Source of the DNA: Elusimicrobiota bacterium
GTDB taxonomy: Bacteria > Elusimicrobiota > Elusimicrobia > F11
DNA length: 64,000 nucleotides
Assembly (NCBI GenBank): GCA_022072025.1
Contig: JAJVIP010000010.1
Span: forward strand, 178,050-242,049
Direction: 5' to 3'
Both the position numbers and the translations under genes were made by a program. This document shows positions 15,015-37,379 of this stretch, in pieces; position 1 is the first letter of the stretch, and each line of letters starts with the position of its first letter. A model generated the notes under the pieces. It did no database searches. It saw only the letters and a program-made list of their open reading frames with translations, and was not told where the DNA came from.

Positions 15015-15103
15015 CCGTCATCCCGGCCGGAAAACGTGCCGGGGCGACAGCGTCTTGTGCAGTAGCTTTAAGTACGATTCAACTGAATTATTCAGGTTAA
15101 ATA
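15015..15103. repeat. Palindromic repeat element, family A copy 1 (short variant) in the dapB-dapL spacer
   Basis: gtcatcccggc-cggaaaacgt-gccggggcgac outer stem plus gattcaactgaattattcaggttaa tail shared with 21913-22050 and 34897-35030; lacks the inner ggccgggatccaggtttt/aaaacctgggccccggcc hairpin. Confidence 0.55.
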
Positions 15104-19596: not shown

Positions 19597-20582
19597 GGAC
19601 GATTTTTTCCCAAGGCTTCGCGGGCGCGGCGCAACAATAGATTTTTAATATCCAGCGCCCAACGACGCGAAGCCAAAGTGCCCGCTTCTATACATTCTCT
19701 TGATCGTTTTAAATCGATAATGGAAATATCACCCACCTCGGGTTCAATGACGATATCCGCATACTTCCGGTTTTCTTTCATGAAAATACCTCCCTGTATT
19801 TCAATCGCTCGCGAGAGGGATCGAAACACGGTAAGTTTTTCAGAAGGCAATTTATCCGCTTTCGGCAAAACGGCCAAAACCACATCAAAAGGTCTTTTAT
19901 TCTCAATAATATCGGTCGGCAAATTATCCACCAATCCCCCGTCAACCAAAAGCCGTTGACGGAAAGGCACAGGCTTAAACAATCCCGGAATGGTTGCGCT
20001 CGCGCGCGCGGCAAACGCCACCGATCCTTCCCTGAGAATAACCCGCTCCCCCGTCCGAATGTCCGTGGCCAAACAAGAGAAGGGAATGGGCAAATCCATA
20101 AAGGTTTTTTCTCCAATATGTTTTTTCAAATAGTCTTCCATCCCCTGGGTGGACAAAAGTTCATCGGAAAGAATCATACGCAGGGCGGACGTTTGAGAAA
20201 CATCGGTTAACTTGTCCCACCCAATCTCATGAGCCATGACCTCAAGTTCGGCATCATCCACGCCGGCGGCGTAAACGGCCCCAATCAAAGCCCCCACGGA
20301 AACGCCGACAATTTCATCGATGGGAATTCGTTCTTCTTTCAGGACACGCAGCACACCAATGTGTGAAAGACCCTTGGCTCCTCCGCCCCCCAAAACGAGT
20401 ATGACTCGAGGGCGTTCAGATGGCGCGAGCGCCTCAAAGCTTTTCCATAAAATTTCCGCGGAAAATCTTTCCTGAGAGACTCCCGCCGGTAATTCAAATC
20501 CACAAACGCTGCGTGGTTGACTCAAGGCCCCATATCCAAGGTGGAGCCCCAATAAAACCAATCTCACAAAACGGCTTATCAC
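19593..20582 (-). CDS. Patatin-like phospholipase
   Basis: 329 aa; GGGAKG oxyanion motif, GVSVGA nucleophile elbow (GxSxG), DGG catalytic Asp motif. Confidence 0.8.
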   Translation of the reverse strand: MISRFVRLVLLGLHLGYGALSQPRSVCGFELPAGVSQERFSAEILWKSFEALAPSERPRVILVLGGGGAKGLSHIGVLRVLKEERIPIDEIVGVSVGALIGAVYAAGVDDAELEVMAHEIGWDKLTDVSQTSALRMILSDELLSTQGMEDYLKKHIGEKTFMDLPIPFSCLATDIRTGERVILREGSVAFAARASATIPGLFKPVPFRQRLLVDGGLVDNLPTDIIENKRPFDVVLAVLPKADKLPSEKLTVFRSLSRAIEIQGGIFMKENRKYADIVIEPEVGDISIIDLKRSRECIEAGTLASRRWALDIKNLLLRRAREALGKNRP

Positions 20583-21842
20583 GGCTGAAAGGAATGGCCT
20601 GTGGCTTTCGTCAATCGAGCCTGAGATATCTGAAGTTCCAAACGCGCGTCAATTAAATTGATGTTGGCCTCCGCGCGCCACTTTAAATAGTCCAATCGTT
20701 GAGATAAAGAGAAAGACTCCCGTTCTGATTCCTTAAGGGCTTTGAGTTGCCTCCCACGAACATCCACCTCATTTTTCCAATGAGTCCAATCGCTATGCGC
20801 GGTCCGGACTTCCATTTCAACTTTGTCTTCCAACTGCACCCGCCGCAGTCGGCCTTGATCGGCTCTATAACGGCTCTCCTTAACGCGGGCCCAACTGGAA
20901 AATCCATCGAATATTGGAATGTTCATGACCAAAGCGGCATTCCAGTTCGTGTCCTCAATGGGGAATTCCTCATTGCGGAGCTCCACATTTCCCCCCAGTA
21001 AAAAAACCGGATAGCGTTCTGACCGGGAAAGCTCCACGGACAGTTGATCCACCTCTTCTTGTATTTGCGTGTCTTTGAGTTCGGCCCGATATTGTTTGGC
21101 CCATACAAGAAGAGTCTGCAATTCAGGGATAACAAAATCGTTATCTAAAGTTCCTTTGGGTTCAACATCGCCAAAAAGTTCGAGGCCCATCGACTCCAAA
21201 TACTGGAAACGTGTAGATTGCTCTTGTTGCTGAAAATCGCTGAGAAGTTTACGCGTATTGGCCTGAGCCGCCATCAAGGCCAGACGGGCGTGAACGGTAG
21301 AAGACTGCTTGGATAATTTTTCAATTTCGATAAGTTCATCAGATAAAATTTTCTGTTTTTGATGAAGCGCCAATAGTCGGTAAAAATTTTCCGTTGTTTG
21401 ACAGCGCACATGATGCCGAACCGTTTCAACCGCGCTTTCCGCGCGGCGCAACCCCGCTTGTGACAACCGATGCGTGGTGCTGACTTTCCCCCCCGCGTAC
21501 AAGGTCTGAAGAAATCCCAAACGTCCCAAATAGAGATTTTGGGCCAATGGATTTCCCCGCGACTCATCCTTGCTTTGTTGCACCGGAGCTTCCAACACAA
21601 TCCCTCCCAGTTCCGGACTGGTCACCCCCAGAGTTTCATGACGATAACGCACATAATCCAAGTTTAAATTGATCTTGGGATAATAAAGGGATTGGGCTTG
21701 CCGAACCTGGGTTTTTGCGACCGATAAATCTTTTCTCGCCAACAGAAGTTCCGGGTTGTTTTTCTCCGCGCGCTCAAGACTCTCAGGCAAAGTGAGTTGC
21801 TCAGCTGAAAAAACCGTGGACCCCGCCAGCATGATCGTCATT
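20579..21842 (-). CDS. TolC-family outer membrane efflux protein (start uncertain)
   Basis: The track ORF (to 22084) runs through repeat element A2. The TolC-like mature N-terminus LTLPESLERAEKNNPELLLARKDL follows MTIMLAGSTVFSA; ATG at 21842. The true start may lie further upstream, possibly inside the repeat element. Confidence 0.7.
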
Positions 21843-21912
21843 CCCACGAAAACAGGAATCCAGCTTCTTAACCCGAATAATTCAGTTGAATGGCCATTAC
21901 CGTCTATCAACA

Positions 21913-22050
21913 GTGAATATTTTTGTGCCGTCATCCCGGCATGTTTTCTGGCCGGGATCCAGGTTTTCTTCATGGGGAAAACCTGGGCCCCGGCCAAAAG
22001 ATTGCCGGGGCGACGATTCAACTGAATCATTCCGGTTAAAATCATGAATG
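21913..22050. repeat. Palindromic repeat element, family A copy 2 (full length, nested hairpins) in the argH-TolC spacer
   Basis: gtgaatattttt...gtcatcccggc-atgttttct-ggccgggatccaggtttt-cttcatgggg-aaaacctgggccccggcc-aaaagatt-gccggggcgac-gattcaactgaatcattccggttaaaatcatgaat; ~90% identical to 34897-35030. Confidence 0.6.
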
Positions 22051-22123
22051 CGTTTCTCCCATTGGGTCTGAATTCCTGACCCACCTGATGGACGGGCGGG
22101 TAAAAAATTTCGCGGATGGCGAC

Positions 22124-23479
22124 TTAATGGAGCAGACGGGTGAGCTTGGCGATTTGGCGCTGGACACTGGCAGGGGAGGTTCCTCCATAGGATGTTTTGG
22201 CGCGGACCACTTTTTCAGGCGCCAATAAAGCCAGCGCCTCTTTATCGAATTGGGAATGAAAAACTTTTAATTCCAGCAAGGAAAGTTGATCCAATCGCAC
22301 TCCTTTCCGTTCGCAATAATTCACCAAATTGCGCACGACCCCATGGGCCGTTCGAAATGGAACCCCACGAACCGCCAAAAAATCAGCCAACTCGGTGGCC
22401 GCAAGATATCCATAATCACACCACCGTTTGAGGACCCCCACATTGACTTTCATGGATTTGATCATCGGCGCCATCACCGATAAACACCCCATGACGGTGT
22501 CGATGGCATCAAACAAAGGGGGTTTGTCTTCTTGGAGATCGCGGTTGTAACTAAGCGGAAGGCCTTTCAGAATGGTGAGGAGCGCCACAAGAGACCCATA
22601 CACCCGGCCCGTTTCTCCCCGCACAATTTCAGCCACATCGGGGTTTCTTTTTTGAGGCATGATAGAGGAACCGGATGTAAATTCTTTGGTCAATTCAATA
22701 AAAGAAAATTCGACACTCGACCAAATCACAAGCTCCTCGGCCATTCTGGACAAATTAGACATCAACAGTGCGCAAGCCGATACAACCTCAACCACGGTGT
22801 CCCGGCTGGCCGTCGCATCAATCGAATTTTCACTGATGGATTTAAAACCCAACATTTTGGCCACAAAACTTCGATCCAAAGGGAAAGAGGTGCCGGCCAA
22901 AGCCGCAGAGCCCAAAGGCAATATATTCAATCGTTTACGGGCATCTCGAAACCGGCCCTTGTCTCTTTCAAGCATCCAGGCATAGGCCAATATGTGATGC
23001 GCAAAAAGGATCGGTTGGGCATGTTGAAGATGTGTGAAACCTGGCATGATGACGTCTTTGTGTCTGGAAGAAATGCCCACCAAGGCGGCTTGAAGGAGAG
23101 AAATTTCTTGGACCATCATATCCACATGATCCCGCATGTAAAGGGCCAAATCGGTGATCACTTGGTCGTTTCGAGACCGACCCGTGTGAAGCATGCCGCC
23201 CACAGGTCCCAATCGGCGGATCAGCTCCCGTTCCATGGCGAAGTGGACATCCTCTTCATCGGGAAGTCTAAATCCCTGATGCATATCGCGAAGAATGGAT
23301 TTCAATCCGCGAACAATTTTTTCGGATTCTCTGAGAGGAATAATCCTCTGTTTCCCCAACATGGTCGCATGCGCGATGGACCCCTGAATATCATAGGGGG
23401 CCAGCCGAACATCGTAGGAAAACGATTCAATAAACCGTTGTGGCGCAGAAACAGAAATGGGAGACGCGGATTTTTTCAT
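22124..23479 (-). CDS. argH: Argininosuccinate lyase
   Basis: 451 aa; fumarate-lyase signature GSSIMPQKRNPD; overlaps argG by 4 nt. Confidence 0.9.
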   Translation of the reverse strand: MKKSASPISVSAPQRFIESFSYDVRLAPYDIQGSIAHATMLGKQRIIPLRESEKIVRGLKSILRDMHQGFRLPDEEDVHFAMERELIRRLGPVGGMLHTGRSRNDQVITDLALYMRDHVDMMVQEISLLQAALVGISSRHKDVIMPGFTHLQHAQPILFAHHILAYAWMLERDKGRFRDARKRLNILPLGSAALAGTSFPLDRSFVAKMLGFKSISENSIDATASRDTVVEVVSACALLMSNLSRMAEELVIWSSVEFSFIELTKEFTSGSSIMPQKRNPDVAEIVRGETGRVYGSLVALLTILKGLPLSYNRDLQEDKPPLFDAIDTVMGCLSVMAPMIKSMKVNVGVLKRWCDYGYLAATELADFLAVRGVPFRTAHGVVRNLVNYCERKGVRLDQLSLLELKVFHSQFDKEALALLAPEKVVRAKTSYGGTSPASVQRQIAKLTRLLH

Positions 23480-30597: not shown

Positions 30598-30697
30598 GGC
30601 TCCACACGACGGAGCCACTTTTCCGGGGCTTGTATCCCCGGAAAAGTACCGCGGTAAGGTAACCCCGGACTTACGTCCGGGCTTTGGCCGCAGTAAA
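30598..30697. repeat. Palindromic repeat element, family B copy 2 (three consecutive hairpins), in the gspE/HK divergent spacer
   Basis: ggctcc-acacgac-ggagcc; acttttccgggg-cttgtat-ccccggaaaagt; ccccggac-ttac-gtccggg. First hairpin differs in sequence but keeps its pairing relative to copy 1 (compensatory). Confidence 0.6.
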
Positions 30698-32948: not shown

Positions 32949-33020
32949 CCCCATTCGATCGCTCCAAATGATGACGCATCAGTTTCCTGTTTTTCCACGA
33001 ATAAATTTTCGGATTGCATT

Positions 33021-33047
33021 CCTCCCCACGCCGTACAGTGGGGAGGT
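33021..33047 (+). terminator. GC-rich hairpin downstream of the response regulator (possible terminator lacking U-tract)
   Basis: cctccccac-gccgtacag-gtggggagg: 9-bp perfect stem, 9-nt loop, 73 nt after the RR stop; no T-run follows. Confidence 0.3.
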
Positions 33048-33196
33048 TGGGAGGGGCAACAAGTGGGGACTCTATAGTTTTTTCAAGGCGACCCTCCTCG
33101 TCGCCTGCCGGGACATCGACAGAGCAATGTCACGTTATTTCCTGCGGTTGTCTTAGGCGTTCCATTAACAGAACGAATTCTTTATAATCCCGTTCT

Positions 33197-34519
33197 ATGA
33201 AGAGTACGGAAGATACCCGATACAGTCTAAGAATTCTATTGGCAGAATCTCATGAGAAAACCTGGCCATCCTTAATCAAACGCGATTTCAATTGGGATTT
33301 GCTGAGTTCCACGCGATTACTCACCTTGGTTGGACCGCGTCGTGCAGGAAAAACTTTTCTGTGTTACCAAATCCTACGCCACCTACTGGACCAAGGGACC
33401 CCACGCCACCGTTTGCTCTATCTCAATTTTGAAGATGAAAGGCTTTATCCCATGTCTGGTCAGGAGCTCACTCTTTTATTGGATGTGTACGAAGAACTCT
33501 TTCCTTGGAAATCAGCGGACCCTCTCTATGTGGTTCTAGACGAGATTCAGAACGTGCCGCAGTGGTCGAGATGGGCCCGGCGGGTACATGAACAGCATCC
33601 CAAGCTTCATTTAATTCTGACCGGATCTTCCTCAAAATTGCTTTCAACTGAGCTGGCCACAGAACTGCGCGGACGAACTTTGGGTTTCTCCGTCTATCCC
33701 TATTCATTCAGTGAGAGACTTCGCGCGGAGGGCGAGGATAACGCCGTATCATCTCTCATGCTTCATGGCCGGGGAAAAAATCGTATGAGACGGTCATTTG
33801 ATCAATTTCTGCTTAAAGGAGGATTTCCAGAACCGTGCCTGCAAGAAAATCCACAACCTGTTTTGCAGTCTTACTATCAAACGATGTTCATGAGAGATCT
33901 GGTTGAACGATATCGAATTAACAACGTGCCTTTATTTGAGGATTTTCTCAAAGTGGCCATCAGCCGTTTCGGATCTCTTTTTTCGGTTTCAGCGCTCCAC
34001 AAAGAACTCGAAGCGCGACATGGCCGAGTGAGCAAAGCGACGCTTGTTCAATACACGCGCTACGCGCGCGAGGTATTTCTTCTCTTCGAACTTCACCGTT
34101 TTGACTTCAAAATAAGGCGCCAACTGTTGCACCCTCGAAAGCTCTATGGCGTGGACGTGGGCCTTTTGAATGCTATTCGCTTTTCCTCCACAGAGGATCG
34201 AGGAAGACTTCTGGAAAACGCGGTTTATCTCGAGCTGCTCCGGCGACCCGCCGAGCTTTATTTTTGGCGACAGGAAGCCGAGTGTGATTTCCTAATAAAA
34301 GAGGGGAAAAAAGTAACGCAAGCCATTCAAGTATCTTGGTCGGTGGAAAAACCTGAAACCCGGGAACGGGAGTTAAGAGGGCTTCTAGAGGCAACCACCC
34401 AGTTTCATTTGAAAGAAGGACTCATTTTAACGGCCGGAGAAACAGCTGATTTCAAACGAGAACACTGCCGTATTCGAGTTCGACCTTTTTGGTACTGGGC
34501 TATAGGAGGGCAAAATTAA
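33197..34519 (+). CDS. AAA+ ATPase of the COG1373 / DUF4143 family
   Basis: 440 aa; Walker A GPRRAGKT, Walker B VVLDEIQ, DUF4143-like C-terminal region; TATAAT at 33183-33188 just upstream of the ATG suggests a short or absent leader. Confidence 0.75.
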   Translation: MKSTEDTRYSLRILLAESHEKTWPSLIKRDFNWDLLSSTRLLTLVGPRRAGKTFLCYQILRHLLDQGTPRHRLLYLNFEDERLYPMSGQELTLLLDVYEELFPWKSADPLYVVLDEIQNVPQWSRWARRVHEQHPKLHLILTGSSSKLLSTELATELRGRTLGFSVYPYSFSERLRAEGEDNAVSSLMLHGRGKNRMRRSFDQFLLKGGFPEPCLQENPQPVLQSYYQTMFMRDLVERYRINNVPLFEDFLKVAISRFGSLFSVSALHKELEARHGRVSKATLVQYTRYAREVFLLFELHRFDFKIRRQLLHPRKLYGVDVGLLNAIRFSSTEDRGRLLENAVYLELLRRPAELYFWRQEAECDFLIKEGKKVTQAIQVSWSVEKPETRERELRGLLEATTQFHLKEGLILTAGETADFKREHCRIRVRPFWYWAIGGQN

Positions 34520-34535: not shown

Positions 34536-36110
34536 TTAGGCCGCGGAGAGAAGGGCGCGGCGCTGAAGTCCCCAATCCTCTAGCTGAAGAATTTTAGAAA
34601 GGCCCTCCAACGATTCAAACAAGATTTTCAATAAAGTTTGATCCTTCGACTGGATCGTCACGGCGCGAGAGTGAATAAAGGCCAGTTGAGCCAGACTCAG
34701 ATTGTTTTGTTGAGCGAAACCCTCCGCCCGAAAGACCTTCTTTCCTTCTTTCGTATTCTCAAACCATGAGGCTCGCGCCATACTTGCACTATCCGCGTCG
34801 TCCTGGACACGAATATCCATATTTCGATTTTGAAACTCGCGGATGACACTCATTATTCTGGAATTTTCAGTTGAACGACCATTATCGCCTGTTGACGGTG
34901 AATCTTTTAGAGTCGTCATCCCGGCATGCTTCCTGGCCGGGATCCAGGTTTTTTCCTCAGAGAAAACCTGGGCCCCGGCCAAAAGATTGCCGGGGCGACG
35001 ATTTATCTGAATATTTCCGGTTAATGAATCGCTCAAGCCCCCTTCGCCTTCCACAACAACCCTCACCTCTTGTTGGAAGTGGAAAGCCACCACCAACGCC
35101 GACTTCAATTGATCTCTCATGGATTTGGGATTTTCCATCATCGACCGGTCCACCACAAGGACGCTGATTTTTCGAGTTAACAGCCCCCGCAACAACTCAA
35201 GATCCTGCGGTTTCTCGCCGGCCAACGCCAGTATTCCCACCACCAACTCCTTGTCTTTCTCCCGAATGTTGATCCCCTGTAAAACGTTGTGAAAGCCTGC
35301 TTGAAAATCACGGTTCGCAACAAGCTGGCTCAGTTGTAGGGGCGACGTCTCCAAGCCCCTCCCTTTTTTCCCGGATACGTCCGAAACCCGAATCCCCTCG
35401 CCAACCAAGGTCCATTGCACCGCTTGGCCAGGTTCTTGTTGGATCAGCGCCTTCACAATTTTCCCCAACCGCTGGCCGGCCAGATAAGAAGGGGGGAGAG
35501 AAGTCAGAAACGGCGCCGTGGCGATGGCAGTACGGTCTGGGCGGCGATCATTCCAGTCTTTGTGGAAAATCCAAAAATAATAGAGCTGGAAAAACACCAG
35601 GCCAACAACCGCGCTCCCCATCAACCACGCGCCGACAGCTCCGCTCAGCAATGAGTTCCAAAGTAAGAGAAGAACCCAGGAAGCCAAAACCCCCGGAGAA
35701 TGGAATTTCAGAGAGCCCATAAAAATTTCGATGCGATCCAAGGGCGTGGCGTGGTCAAGCCGATAGACCCACCCCTTGTTTTCCAGACTTTTAATCACCA
35801 CTTGATTCCAGTGCGGCAACAAGAACAAAATATTGACCCCCACATGAATGACCAAAGCCATCACGGCCGCGGAACTCGCCTCCAGACCGATGAGATCCCC
35901 CTCCGAAGTCGCTTTAATGAACAAAAGCCAAATCGCGATCACATTGGCCATCGTGTACATCATCGTGGCAATCAACACTTCCTTCTTTAAGGCCTCTTTA
36001 ACACTCTCAGGGTTGACCTTCCTTTCATCATTGACCTCCACCAACGACGGCCACATGGCTTGAGGAGAAGAACTTTCTTTTCCGTTTTTATTATATGTTG
36101 TATTAAACAA
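34536..36110 (-). CDS. Multi-pass membrane protein of unknown function with in-frame repeat-element A insertion (possible ATG start at 36056)
   Basis: Track start is a TTG at 36110; ATG at 36056 (MWPSL...) is an alternative. Several hydrophobic helices in the N-terminal 200 aa; the family A element at 34897-35030 is read through in-frame (...NRRPGNLLAGAQVF..KTWIPARKHAGMT...). Confidence 0.5.
   Translation of the reverse strand: MFNTTYNKNGKESSSPQAMWPSLVEVNDERKVNPESVKEALKKEVLIATMMYTMANVIAIWLLFIKATSEGDLIGLEASSAAVMALVIHVGVNILFLLPHWNQVVIKSLENKGWVYRLDHATPLDRIEIFMGSLKFHSPGVLASWVLLLLWNSLLSGAVGAWLMGSAVVGLVFFQLYYFWIFHKDWNDRRPDRTAIATAPFLTSLPPSYLAGQRLGKIVKALIQQEPGQAVQWTLVGEGIRVSDVSGKKGRGLETSPLQLSQLVANRDFQAGFHNVLQGINIREKDKELVVGILALAGEKPQDLELLRGLLTRKISVLVVDRSMMENPKSMRDQLKSALVVAFHFQQEVRVVVEGEGGLSDSLTGNIQINRRPGNLLAGAQVFSEEKTWIPARKHAGMTTLKDSPSTGDNGRSTENSRIMSVIREFQNRNMDIRVQDDADSASMARASWFENTKEGKKVFRAEGFAQQNNLSLAQLAFIHSRAVTIQSKDQTLLKILFESLEGLSKILQLEDWGLQRRALLSAA
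34897..35030. repeat. Palindromic repeat element, family A copy 3, inside the 34536-36110 CDS
   Basis: ~90% identical to 21913-22050 including flanking gtgaat...tgaat motifs; 134 bp; no stop codons in the host frame. Confidence 0.6.
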
Positions 36111-36122
36111 TAATATAGGTTA

Positions 36123-37379
36123 TTGTTTTTTACCATGAAATCACTATACACCACTATTGAAGCCCATAAGAGAGAGAGAGATTTGGCGCTTCGCCGGACT
36201 CTCGTCCCCCGCCATATGAGCGCCGCCCTTTCGAAAGCGCTTTCTTCCCCTCTGGTGAAAGTCATTACAGGACCCCGCCGGGCCGGGAAGTCCACCTTGG
36301 CTTTTCAGACTCTTTCTGGGAAAAATTTCGCCTATCTCAATTTCGAAGATGATGCGCTGAAAAGCGATGTCACCAGCGACGAGCTGATCGAAGCCATGGA
36401 TGAGGTGTACGGAAAAGCCGAATATGTCTTCTTTGATGAAATTCAGAACTATCCTCAATGGGAAAGCTTCATCAACAAATTACACCGCCGTGAGCACAAC
36501 CTGGTCATTACCGGCTCAAATTCAAGGCTCCTGAGTCGAGAATTGGGATCGGCTCTCACGGGCCGGCATCTTTCTTTCGAGTTATTGCCTTTTAGTTATC
36601 AAGAGTTTTTGGCTGCGCTTTCAAATAACACAAGCAATGACATGAAAAATTTTCACCGGTACTTAACATGGGGCGGTTTTCCCGAAGTTGTTCTTGGGAA
36701 TTCCGAACCGCACGGATACTTGCGCACTCTTTTTGATTCGGTCGTCCTGCGCGATATTGTGACCCGTCACCACATCCGTTCCTCATTGGCTATTCATGAT
36801 CTGCTGAACCTTCTCATCAATAACGCAACAAGCCGGTTTTCAGCGCGAAGCCTGGAACGATCCTTGGGCTCACTCTCCATCGCCACCGTTCAGAAATTCA
36901 TTGCCTATTTTCGTGAGGCCTATTTGGTCCATGACCTTCAACCGTACTTCTTCAAGCCGCGGTTGAGAATCAAGGCAGACCGCAAAATCTATGCCTATGA
37001 CAATGGCTTGATTTCCGCCGTCTCACAGCCCACCACCTCAAATCAATCGCGGCTGCTTGAGAACCTGGTTTTTATTGAACTCGTGCGGCGCGGATTCAAA
37101 CCAAATCTCGATTTATTCTATTACCAAACTCGATCCGGCAACGAAGTGGATTTCTTGGTTCGGAATGGATCAAAGAACATTGAGCTCATTCAAGTGACGC
37201 AAAACCTTGCCGCCTTAAAAACCCGTGAACGAGAGCTTCGCTCCCTTCATCAGGCGTCAGAAGAACTCAATGTCTCCAAACTCACCATCCTCACCATGGA
37301 TACGGAAGAAACAATCAAAGAAAGCGGGATTCGAATTCGCGTGATCCCATGCCAGAAATGGCTGTTAGAAAAAATCTGA
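36123..37379 (+). CDS. AAA+ ATPase of the COG1373 / DUF4143 family (paralog of 33197-34519)
   Basis: 418 aa; Walker A GPRRAGKST, Walker B VFFDEIQN, same architecture as the other copy; divergent from the membrane-protein gene with a short AT-rich spacer. Confidence 0.75.
   Translation: MFFTMKSLYTTIEAHKRERDLALRRTLVPRHMSAALSKALSSPLVKVITGPRRAGKSTLAFQTLSGKNFAYLNFEDDALKSDVTSDELIEAMDEVYGKAEYVFFDEIQNYPQWESFINKLHRREHNLVITGSNSRLLSRELGSALTGRHLSFELLPFSYQEFLAALSNNTSNDMKNFHRYLTWGGFPEVVLGNSEPHGYLRTLFDSVVLRDIVTRHHIRSSLAIHDLLNLLINNATSRFSARSLERSLGSLSIATVQKFIAYFREAYLVHDLQPYFFKPRLRIKADRKIYAYDNGLISAVSQPTTSNQSRLLENLVFIELVRRGFKPNLDLFYYQTRSGNEVDFLVRNGSKNIELIQVTQNLAALKTRERELRSLHQASEELNVSKLTILTMDTEETIKESGIRIRVIPCQKWLLEKI

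Follow-up and report, generated by a model that had tools for sequence, protein, structure and literature searches.

Whether a palindromic repeat found inside an open reading frame (ORF) was inserted in frame into one gene, or instead fused two genes or left a pseudogene, is the question raised by a locus of an Elusimicrobiota bacterium. The locus lies on contig JAJVIP010000010.1 of a metagenome-assembled genome (MAG), of which a stretch of 64,000 nucleotides (nt), hereafter the window, was analyzed; all coordinates are window positions. The ORF (34536-36110, minus strand; hereafter the host ORF) is annotated at NCBI as a hypothetical protein of 506 aa (MCG3205015.1, KCHDKBKB_01732). The repeat within it is a non-autonomous palindromic element of 172 bp, similar to a MITE (miniature inverted-repeat transposable element), and consists of an inverted dimer of repetitive extragenic palindromic (REP) hairpins tagged with CGTC, placed between 24-nt terminal inverted repeats (TIRs). 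The evidence described below indicates that the host ORF is very probably a single gene carrying this palindrome as an in-frame insertion of 56 codons.

Reading frame and homolog of the host gene

The initial annotation had described a minus-strand ORF that reads through the repeat without a stop, and this was confirmed; the peptide quoted there, ...INRRPGNLLAGAQVFSEEKTWIPARKHAGMTTLKDSPSTG..., is present exactly. The label of membrane protein also appears reasonable, as the hydropathy profile has four hydrophobic segments within aa 45-182 of the host ORF. The element encodes aa 363-420, within the soluble C-terminal region, and GGLSDSLTGNIQINR and STENSRIMSVIR are examples of peptides of the predicted host protein that would span the junctions. 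In the AlphaFold2 model of the host ORF, the mean predicted local distance difference test (pLDDT) score was 38.8 and was lowest in the element region, too poor for placing the insert in a loop.

An exhaustive HMMER search against 1.84 billion protein representatives found one true homolog of the host ORF (E 7e-5, in two stretches). This protein, P0006, has 192 aa and is encoded by a single uninterrupted ORF on a JGI metagenome contig (L121). According to BLASTP, its residues 1-83 match 263-351 of the host ORF (E 6e-8) and its residues 114-192 match 446-524 (E 2e-9), in colinear order, and the two proteins share the extreme C-terminus (RAL.SAA-stop). Other searches added nothing to this: the Pfam scan assigned no domain to the host ORF, a word-indexed protein search with the full host ORF matched only the ORF itself, the same kind of search with the alignment of the peptides from two copies of the repeat gave no match, and a word-indexed profile search using P0006 and the host ORF minus the element returned P0006 only.

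When 168 nt (the element minus one TTAA) were excised in silico, the frame was kept and a product of 468 aa was obtained, for which one gapped alignment spanned all 192 residues of P0006 with an E value of 3e-17, the two segments being merged into one. Excision of 172 nt resulted in a frameshift and an immediate stop. Because of this frame arithmetic, a net gain of 168 nt is preferred over one of 172 nt. The coding score, calculated from codon usage trained on the window genes, was 0.29 bits/codon in the upstream flank and 0.23 bits/codon in the downstream flank, both in the frame of the ORF, and 0.06 bits/codon in the element; the correctly framed window genes with Pfam domains, which were the training set, scored 0.17-0.45 bits/codon. 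The choice between one gene and a fusion, and the frame of the downstream part, had been left to an alignment with orthologs. Since P0006 is colinear with the host ORF on both sides of the element and is one ORF, excision heals the alignment and both flanks are coding, the earlier proposal of an in-frame insertion in one gene, and not a fusion or pseudogene, is supported.

Some features of contig L121 are recorded here as separate observations. At the matching insertion point (~505-515), it reads ATTAATGAG. The empty site reconstructed from the window (35021-35033 / 34847-34856) is TCATTAATGAGT or TCAATAATGAGT, depending on the terminal 4-mer that is kept (TTAA or ATAA). When TTAA is kept, ATTAATGAG is common to L121 and the window gene, in different codon registers, which may be due to chance or may hint at TTAA as the target. 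The ORF of P0006 (217-795), equivalent to the soluble part of the host, is separate in L121, and 65 nt upstream of it, in another frame, an ORF (2-151) ends that includes a hydrophobic segment. What is one gene in the window may be two genes in L121, one for the membrane part and one for the soluble part. When this upstream ORF was compared with the host as a possible homolog of its N-terminal membrane portion, the match was not significant (E 0.3).

Anatomy and copies of the repeat

To set the limits of the element, the copy in the host ORF (copy 1) was aligned with two other sequences, namely copy 2 and L018, a relative found in a different Elusimicrobia MAG. The limits reported earlier, 34897-35030, include the core and the right end and miss ~44 nt on the left; the alignment gives 34853-35024. 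The parts of the element and the other copies in the window are listed in Table 1.

Table 1. Host gene, copies of the repeat and parts of copy 1, in window positions
Feature	Position	Strand	Description
Host gene	34536-36110	-	524 aa, TTG start; lineage-restricted; hydrophobic N-terminal part, soluble C-terminal part with the insert
Copy 1	34853-35024	+	172 nt, TTAT to TTAA; limits from ungapped alignment with copy 2 and L018
Copy 2	21868-22039	+	172 nt, both TIRs intact; between argH (stop at 22124) and the main part of the TolC-like gene
Copy 3	15016-15100	+	truncated: one collapsed CGTC hairpin, 27-nt spacer and right TIR; between dapB and an aminotransferase gene
CGTC hairpin unit A	34914-34946	+	CGTC, stem ATCCCGGC, 10-nt loop, stem GCCGGGAT, tail CCA
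Spacer between units A and B	34947-34968	.	22 nt; itself a small hairpin (GGTTTT...AAAACC); from folds and sequence
CGTC hairpin unit B, inverted	34969-35000	-	CGTC, stem GCCCCGGC, 9-nt loop, stem GCCGGGGC, tail CCA
Right TIR, copy 1	35000-35024	+	GATTTATCTGAATATTTCCGGTTAA; 3 mismatches to the family motif
Left TIR, copy 1	34853-34876	-	degenerate, 67% identical to copy 2; missed at 3 or fewer mismatches

Copies 1 and 2 align without gaps over 159 nt at 85% identity. By region, the identity was 67% at the left end, 71% in the left arm, 90% in the 91-nt core and 84% at the right end, and it was 26-27% in the 100-nt flanks. A 34-mer of the element had two matches in the window, with 0 expected, and copy 3, near 15.0 kb, was found by sensitive BLAST. 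The TIR motif GATTCAACTGAATNATTCNGGTTAA (24-25 nt, within the 15-30 bp of MITE TIRs) occurs four times in the window, again with 0 expected, at both ends of copy 2 and at the right ends of copies 1 and 3, and it is present in L018 as well. The element has TTAA (or TTAT, TTAG) at both ends, the left end of copy 1 being TTAT, and a full-length insertion sequence with the same ends would be bounded by TTAACCGGAAT...ATTCCGGTTAA.

A pattern search for CGTC units found five in the window (0 expected), and copies 1, 2 and 3 all carry such units. The CGTC head is unpaired, as in CGTCATCCCGGC at 34914 (+) and CGTCGCCCCGGC at 35000 (-), and likewise in copies 2 and 3. In copies 1 and 2, the units have loops of 10 and 9 nt. 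The whole element is predicted to fold into a single long hairpin, with an energy of -79 kcal/mol for the plus strand (z -7.8) and -70.8 kcal/mol in the mRNA sense (z -6.5). No Rfam family was found in the window, and the promoter and terminator scans gave nothing beyond shuffle expectation, with no terminator-like site on the mRNA strand inside the element. The neighboring genes in the window have housekeeping functions, in glycine cleavage and in the synthesis of lysine and arginine.

Copies 2 and 3 occupy typical intergenic sites, between genes of the same direction. The claim that copy 2 encodes essentially the same peptide as copy 1 proved right: the peptide is encoded in the same frame, in the N-terminal extension of the TolC-like ORF at 20579-22084, and the mechanically defined ORF of this TolC-like (OEP) gene runs back through copy 2 in that frame. 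Within 21840-22084 (-), the CGTC head of copy 2 holds an ATG (GCCGGGATGACG) in frame with the TolC-like gene, which lies upstream of the signal-peptide-like stretch (RSWIPVFVGMTIMLAGSTVFSA) of the ORF. In copy 3, the core and the right TIR are separated by a 27-nt segment that copies 1 and 2 lack. The translation of this segment (IQLNRT.SYCTRRCRPG) matches the 9 extra residues (IQLNRTKRTCTRRCRPG) of the copy borne by a CoaB protein of the same MAG, within residues 128-150 of that protein (P0004, described below). Since the segment is found in both copies, at least two length variants exist in the element family.

Frames -2 and +2 are free of stops in both full copies, and the other four frames have at least one stop each. 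Among shuffled sequences, such an open pair appears in ~3% when the shuffle is plain and in 9% when it is palindromic. The differences between copies 1 and 2 are distributed over the three codon positions as 9/11/11, and 18 of the 21 changed codons are non-synonymous and 3 synonymous, while unpaired positions differ twice as often as paired ones. The similarity between the copies is at the level of DNA, not of protein.

Insertions in other genes and alternative explanations

The HMMER search also detected three proteins whose match is limited to residues 355-423 of the host ORF, that is, the peptide of the element. All three (P0002, P0003 and P0004) have the locus-tag prefix of this MAG and are encoded on other contigs (KCHDKBKB_01431, _01998 and _02925). 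Including the host protein, the element-bearing proteins of the MAG are MCG3204715.1, MCG3205015.1, MCG3205279.1 (CoaB) and MCG3206194.1. The flanks of P0002, P0003 and P0004 are unrelated to each other, and the common block extends from LTG.IQLNRRPGN to NG.STELFGL. At least four annotated genes of the MAG read through the element in the same frame, and its peptide of ~55 aa occurs in at least five ORFs, in this MAG only among the representatives searched. A coiled-coil repeat protein (P0005) that matched in 16 stretches was dismissed as a compositional match.

P0004 contains the domain of CoaB (phosphopantothenate-cysteine ligase). In the alignment with PDB 5int, its residues 1-114 pair with chain residues 20-132 and its residues 193-271 with 126-208, and the 78 residues in the gap have no match in that structure. 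On removal of the element, the Pfam DFP match changed from two stretches to one (profile 17-171, 171.9 bits). The insert in CoaB is supported by this comparison with the insert-free structures 5int and 1u7u and with Pfam DFP. Of the other two, P0002 is a DUF2063 protein and P0003 is a protein of 4451 aa with a kinase domain. For P0002 minus the element, the Pfam NGO1945_C match crosses the junction and is still below the threshold, and a PDB search gave nothing meaningful.

The best explanation of these results, and a probable one, is the following course of events. The element would have entered a lineage-specific gene for a membrane protein, in the stretch coding for the soluble C-terminal region. 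The gene would have grown by 168 bp net (56 codons), which is the gain expected from a duplication of 2-4 bp inside TTAA at the target. It would then have read the stop-free frame of the element and remained one ORF, so that the product would gain a hydrophilic segment of ~56-58 residues between two conserved blocks. Since each orientation offers one open frame and the net length is a multiple of three, about one-third of random intragenic insertions would be expected to leave an intact ORF. Selection would remove the insertions that are out of frame and leave the in-frame copies, and several genes of the MAG may carry the element because about a third of insertions survive and selection clears the rest. 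The identity and limits of the repeat, its hairpin and CGTC anatomy, the colinear homolog, the frame arithmetic and the recurrence in other genes of the MAG are directly shown; we infer the transposition mechanism, the duplication of TTAA, tolerance at the protein level and expression.

Several points weigh against the host ORF being one gene with a tolerated insertion. The sole homolog is distant (30-37% identity), so that the exact sequence before insertion is not visible, and the insertion itself is deduced from this distant homolog. The position of the insert in a surface loop is not supported by the model of the host ORF, given its low pLDDT, and, judged by its frequency among palindromic shuffles, the open frame pair is only slightly out of the ordinary in a palindrome of this kind. 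In addition, the Pfam scan found no transposase among the ORFs of the 64-kb window, and the terminal TTAA may be either a target duplication or part of the TIR, the left end of copy 1 reading TTAT.

The long ORF could also be an artefact, if the element bridges two adjacent genes or disrupts one, the product then being a fusion or a pseudogene. Having one open frame per orientation makes chance bridging plausible, and copy 2 does bridge the region upstream of the TolC-like gene; moreover, an ATG (MSVIREF...) comes after the element in the host ORF, aa 406-450, immediately downstream of the element, have a low coding score, and the host gene is an orphan lacking a Pfam domain. We nevertheless regard this as very improbable, in view of P0006, which covers both sides in one ORF with the C-terminus in common, of the single high-scoring segment pair (E 3e-17) that the 168-nt excision produced, and of the coding nature of both flanks in the same frame. 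It is still less credible, to the point of being negligible, that the common peptide is an ordinary protein domain or motif and the DNA similarity secondary to it. The occurrence of a ~55-aa peptide in at least five ORFs might be taken that way, but DNA identity (84-90%) is higher than peptide identity (~67%), the substitutions are indifferent to codon position, and the peptide is confined to one MAG among the 1.84 billion representatives searched. This explanation is refuted by the palindromic structure, a near-perfect one with TIRs at the DNA level, together with copies 2 and 3, which sit between genes.

A further alternative is that the insert has been co-opted, either because the peptide adds a function or because the mRNA hairpin of ~-70 kcal/mol is a signal for processing, stability or translation pausing. 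The hairpin is very stable in the mRNA sense, the core stems are kept across copies (90% identity), at least four genes retain the element, and an action of REPs at the level of RNA has been proposed (PMC3733652). However, the even distribution of changes over codon positions and the 18 non-synonymous against 3 synonymous codon changes reveal no constraint at the protein level, the hosts (CoaB, the DUF2063 protein, the giant kinase-domain protein and the membrane protein) are unrelated, the same sequence is present in the intergenic copies, and there was no match to an Rfam family. Co-option is therefore considered unlikely, and the insert is most likely tolerated selfish DNA and not a functional domain.

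Relation to known palindromic repeats

The CGTC-tagged REPs have been described as hairpins with a stem of 8-9 bp, a loop of 4-5 nt and a 3-nt tail that is mostly CCA (Di Nocera, De Gregorio and Rocco 2013, BMC Genomics 14:522; PMC3733652). In that classification, CGTC-1 comprises the neisserial dRS3 and RPE-6 of R. conorii, CGTC-4 corresponds to RPE-4, copies number from tens to thousands per genome, intragenic CGTC and GTAG repeats are reported in several species, and no dedicated transposase of CGTC repeats is known (PMC3733652). The element described here has a CGTC head in each unit, 8-bp stems (ATCCCGGC/GCCGGGAT and GCCCCGGC/GCCGGGGC) and CCA tails, whereas its loops are 9-10 nt and not 4-5 nt. 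The window holds three elements with five units, and three more copies are deduced from the proteins on other contigs. Like other CGTC REPs, the units have G+C-rich stems and form an inverted dimer with a structured spacer, and the repeats lie mostly between genes of the same direction, with some intragenic copies that encode tens of residues. Apart from the loops, the differences are that the dimer is placed inside a longer unit with its own 24-nt, TTAA-ended TIRs, and that the phylum Elusimicrobiota is outside the five phyla of the 2013 list (PMC3733652).

Dimers of this kind were sought in one genome per species with the pattern GTCATCCCGGC-N45-75-GCCGGGGCGAC, which matched at least 120 loci (L001-L120). 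Among the matches listed, the loci were from Sphingomonadales, Betaproteobacteria, Elusimicrobia and others, and the genome of the window itself was not one of them. At least 127 dimers elsewhere have the CGTC head (preceded by C in 93 and followed by G in 104), 8-bp stems, a CCA tail and a variable spacer; the CCA tail was present in 110 of 170 units among the dimers listed. Their loops are mostly 4 nt, and the few loops of 9 nt are among the Elusimicrobia loci L018, L090 and L105, whose dimers are between genes or at gene ends. This dimer architecture corresponds to CGTC-1 in the classification of Di Nocera et al. (2013). Near-identical dimers with the same 8-bp stems (ATCCCGGC and GCCCCGGC) were observed, among the matches listed, in MAGs of Alpha-, Beta- and Gammaproteobacteria, Elusimicrobiota, Gemmatimonadales and Binatia. 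A scan of metagenome DNA with the central hairpin gave two matches, and both were set aside as intergenic, high-GC CGTC dimers of proteobacterial type that fall outside this subfamily.

The parallel with Rickettsia that was drawn in the initial annotation turned out to be closer than an analogy, because the core hairpins carry the tag of the superfamily that includes RPE-4 and RPE-6 (PMC3733652). The Rickettsia palindromic elements (RPEs; RPE-1 and others, Ogata et al. 2000), as summarized in PMC3733652 and PMC10969869, are palindromic repeats of ~150 bp found in frame in unrelated genes, and a 2024 review regards in-frame fusions through intragenic MITEs as not unusual, with RPEs as the extreme case (PMC10969869). 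As with RPEs, the hosts are unrelated genes that include housekeeping enzymes, the added peptide is conserved, intergenic copies are found as well, and in-frame insertion is supported by insert-free homologs (P0006 for the host ORF; PDB 5int/1u7u and Pfam DFP for CoaB). Unlike RPEs, the element belongs to another lineage, has four intragenic cases compared with dozens in R. conorii, and has clear TIRs and TTAA as a candidate target. The family link to RPEs is solely by way of the CGTC classification of RPE-4 and RPE-6 (PMC3733652).

Two inverted REP hairpins that are able to form one long hairpin are also characteristic of REPINs and BIMEs. These doublets are mobilized by RAYT transposases, and REPINs have a GTAG tag and an adjacent RAYT gene, whereas the tag here is CGTC, and no RAYT (Y1 transposase) was found among the window ORFs scanned with Pfam. 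The MITEs of Neisseria known as Correia or NEMIS elements are similar in being small, in having TIRs but no coding capacity of their own, in forming a long RNA hairpin, and in possibly causing a short, TA-containing target duplication. We take the TIR of the window element to be unrelated in sequence to the Correia TIR. The interior also differs, consisting of REP hairpins and not of a deleted insertion sequence, and no parent insertion sequence is known.

The phenomenon is thus already known from Rickettsia and other bacteria, and the present case is an RPE-like element based on CGTC REPs in a new phylum, Elusimicrobiota. It extends the in-frame insertion of palindromic repeats, which is best known from Rickettsia, to a free-living bacterium of a candidate phylum. 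With some reservation, and at rather low probability, we suggest that an RPE-like burst may be active in this genome. The element concerned would be a translation-compatible CGTC-REP dimer set between inverted repeats with TTAA ends, and it would already have given an extra loop to four or more proteins, CoaB among them. If this is true, the definable ends and the candidate target could lead to the missing transposase of the CGTC repeats; more speculatively, the composite of TIRs and CGTC dimer might help to explain how these repeats spread. CoaB, with solved structures of homologs, would be a concrete case for how an enzyme tolerates the insertion of ~56-78 residues. When genomes are annotated, the recurrent peptide (…NRRPGNLLAGAQVF…KTWIPARKHAGMT…) should be read as the mark of a DNA repeat and not of a protein domain.

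Other features of the window were noted in passing. The host ORF is flanked on the opposite strand by two paralogous genes for ATPases with AAA_14 and DUF4143 domains, 33197-34519 (+) and 36123-37379 (+), whose products are 34% identical. The giant ORF that adjoins the studied region, 37887-63959 (-), had no convincing match in Pfam; it encodes 8690 aa and is made mostly of tandem units of ~235-258 aa, with a DNA period of 705-774 nt and 60-87% identity. A 43-nt inverted repeat pair, 1760-1802 / 33018-33060, is 79% complementary, contains the motifs CCCCAC/GTGGGGAGG and is unrelated to the element. A 31-nt palindromic sequence (ACTTTTCCGGGG...CCCGGAAAAGT) occurs twice, at 2402-2432 and 30617-30647, and may represent a second family of small hairpins or shared terminators.

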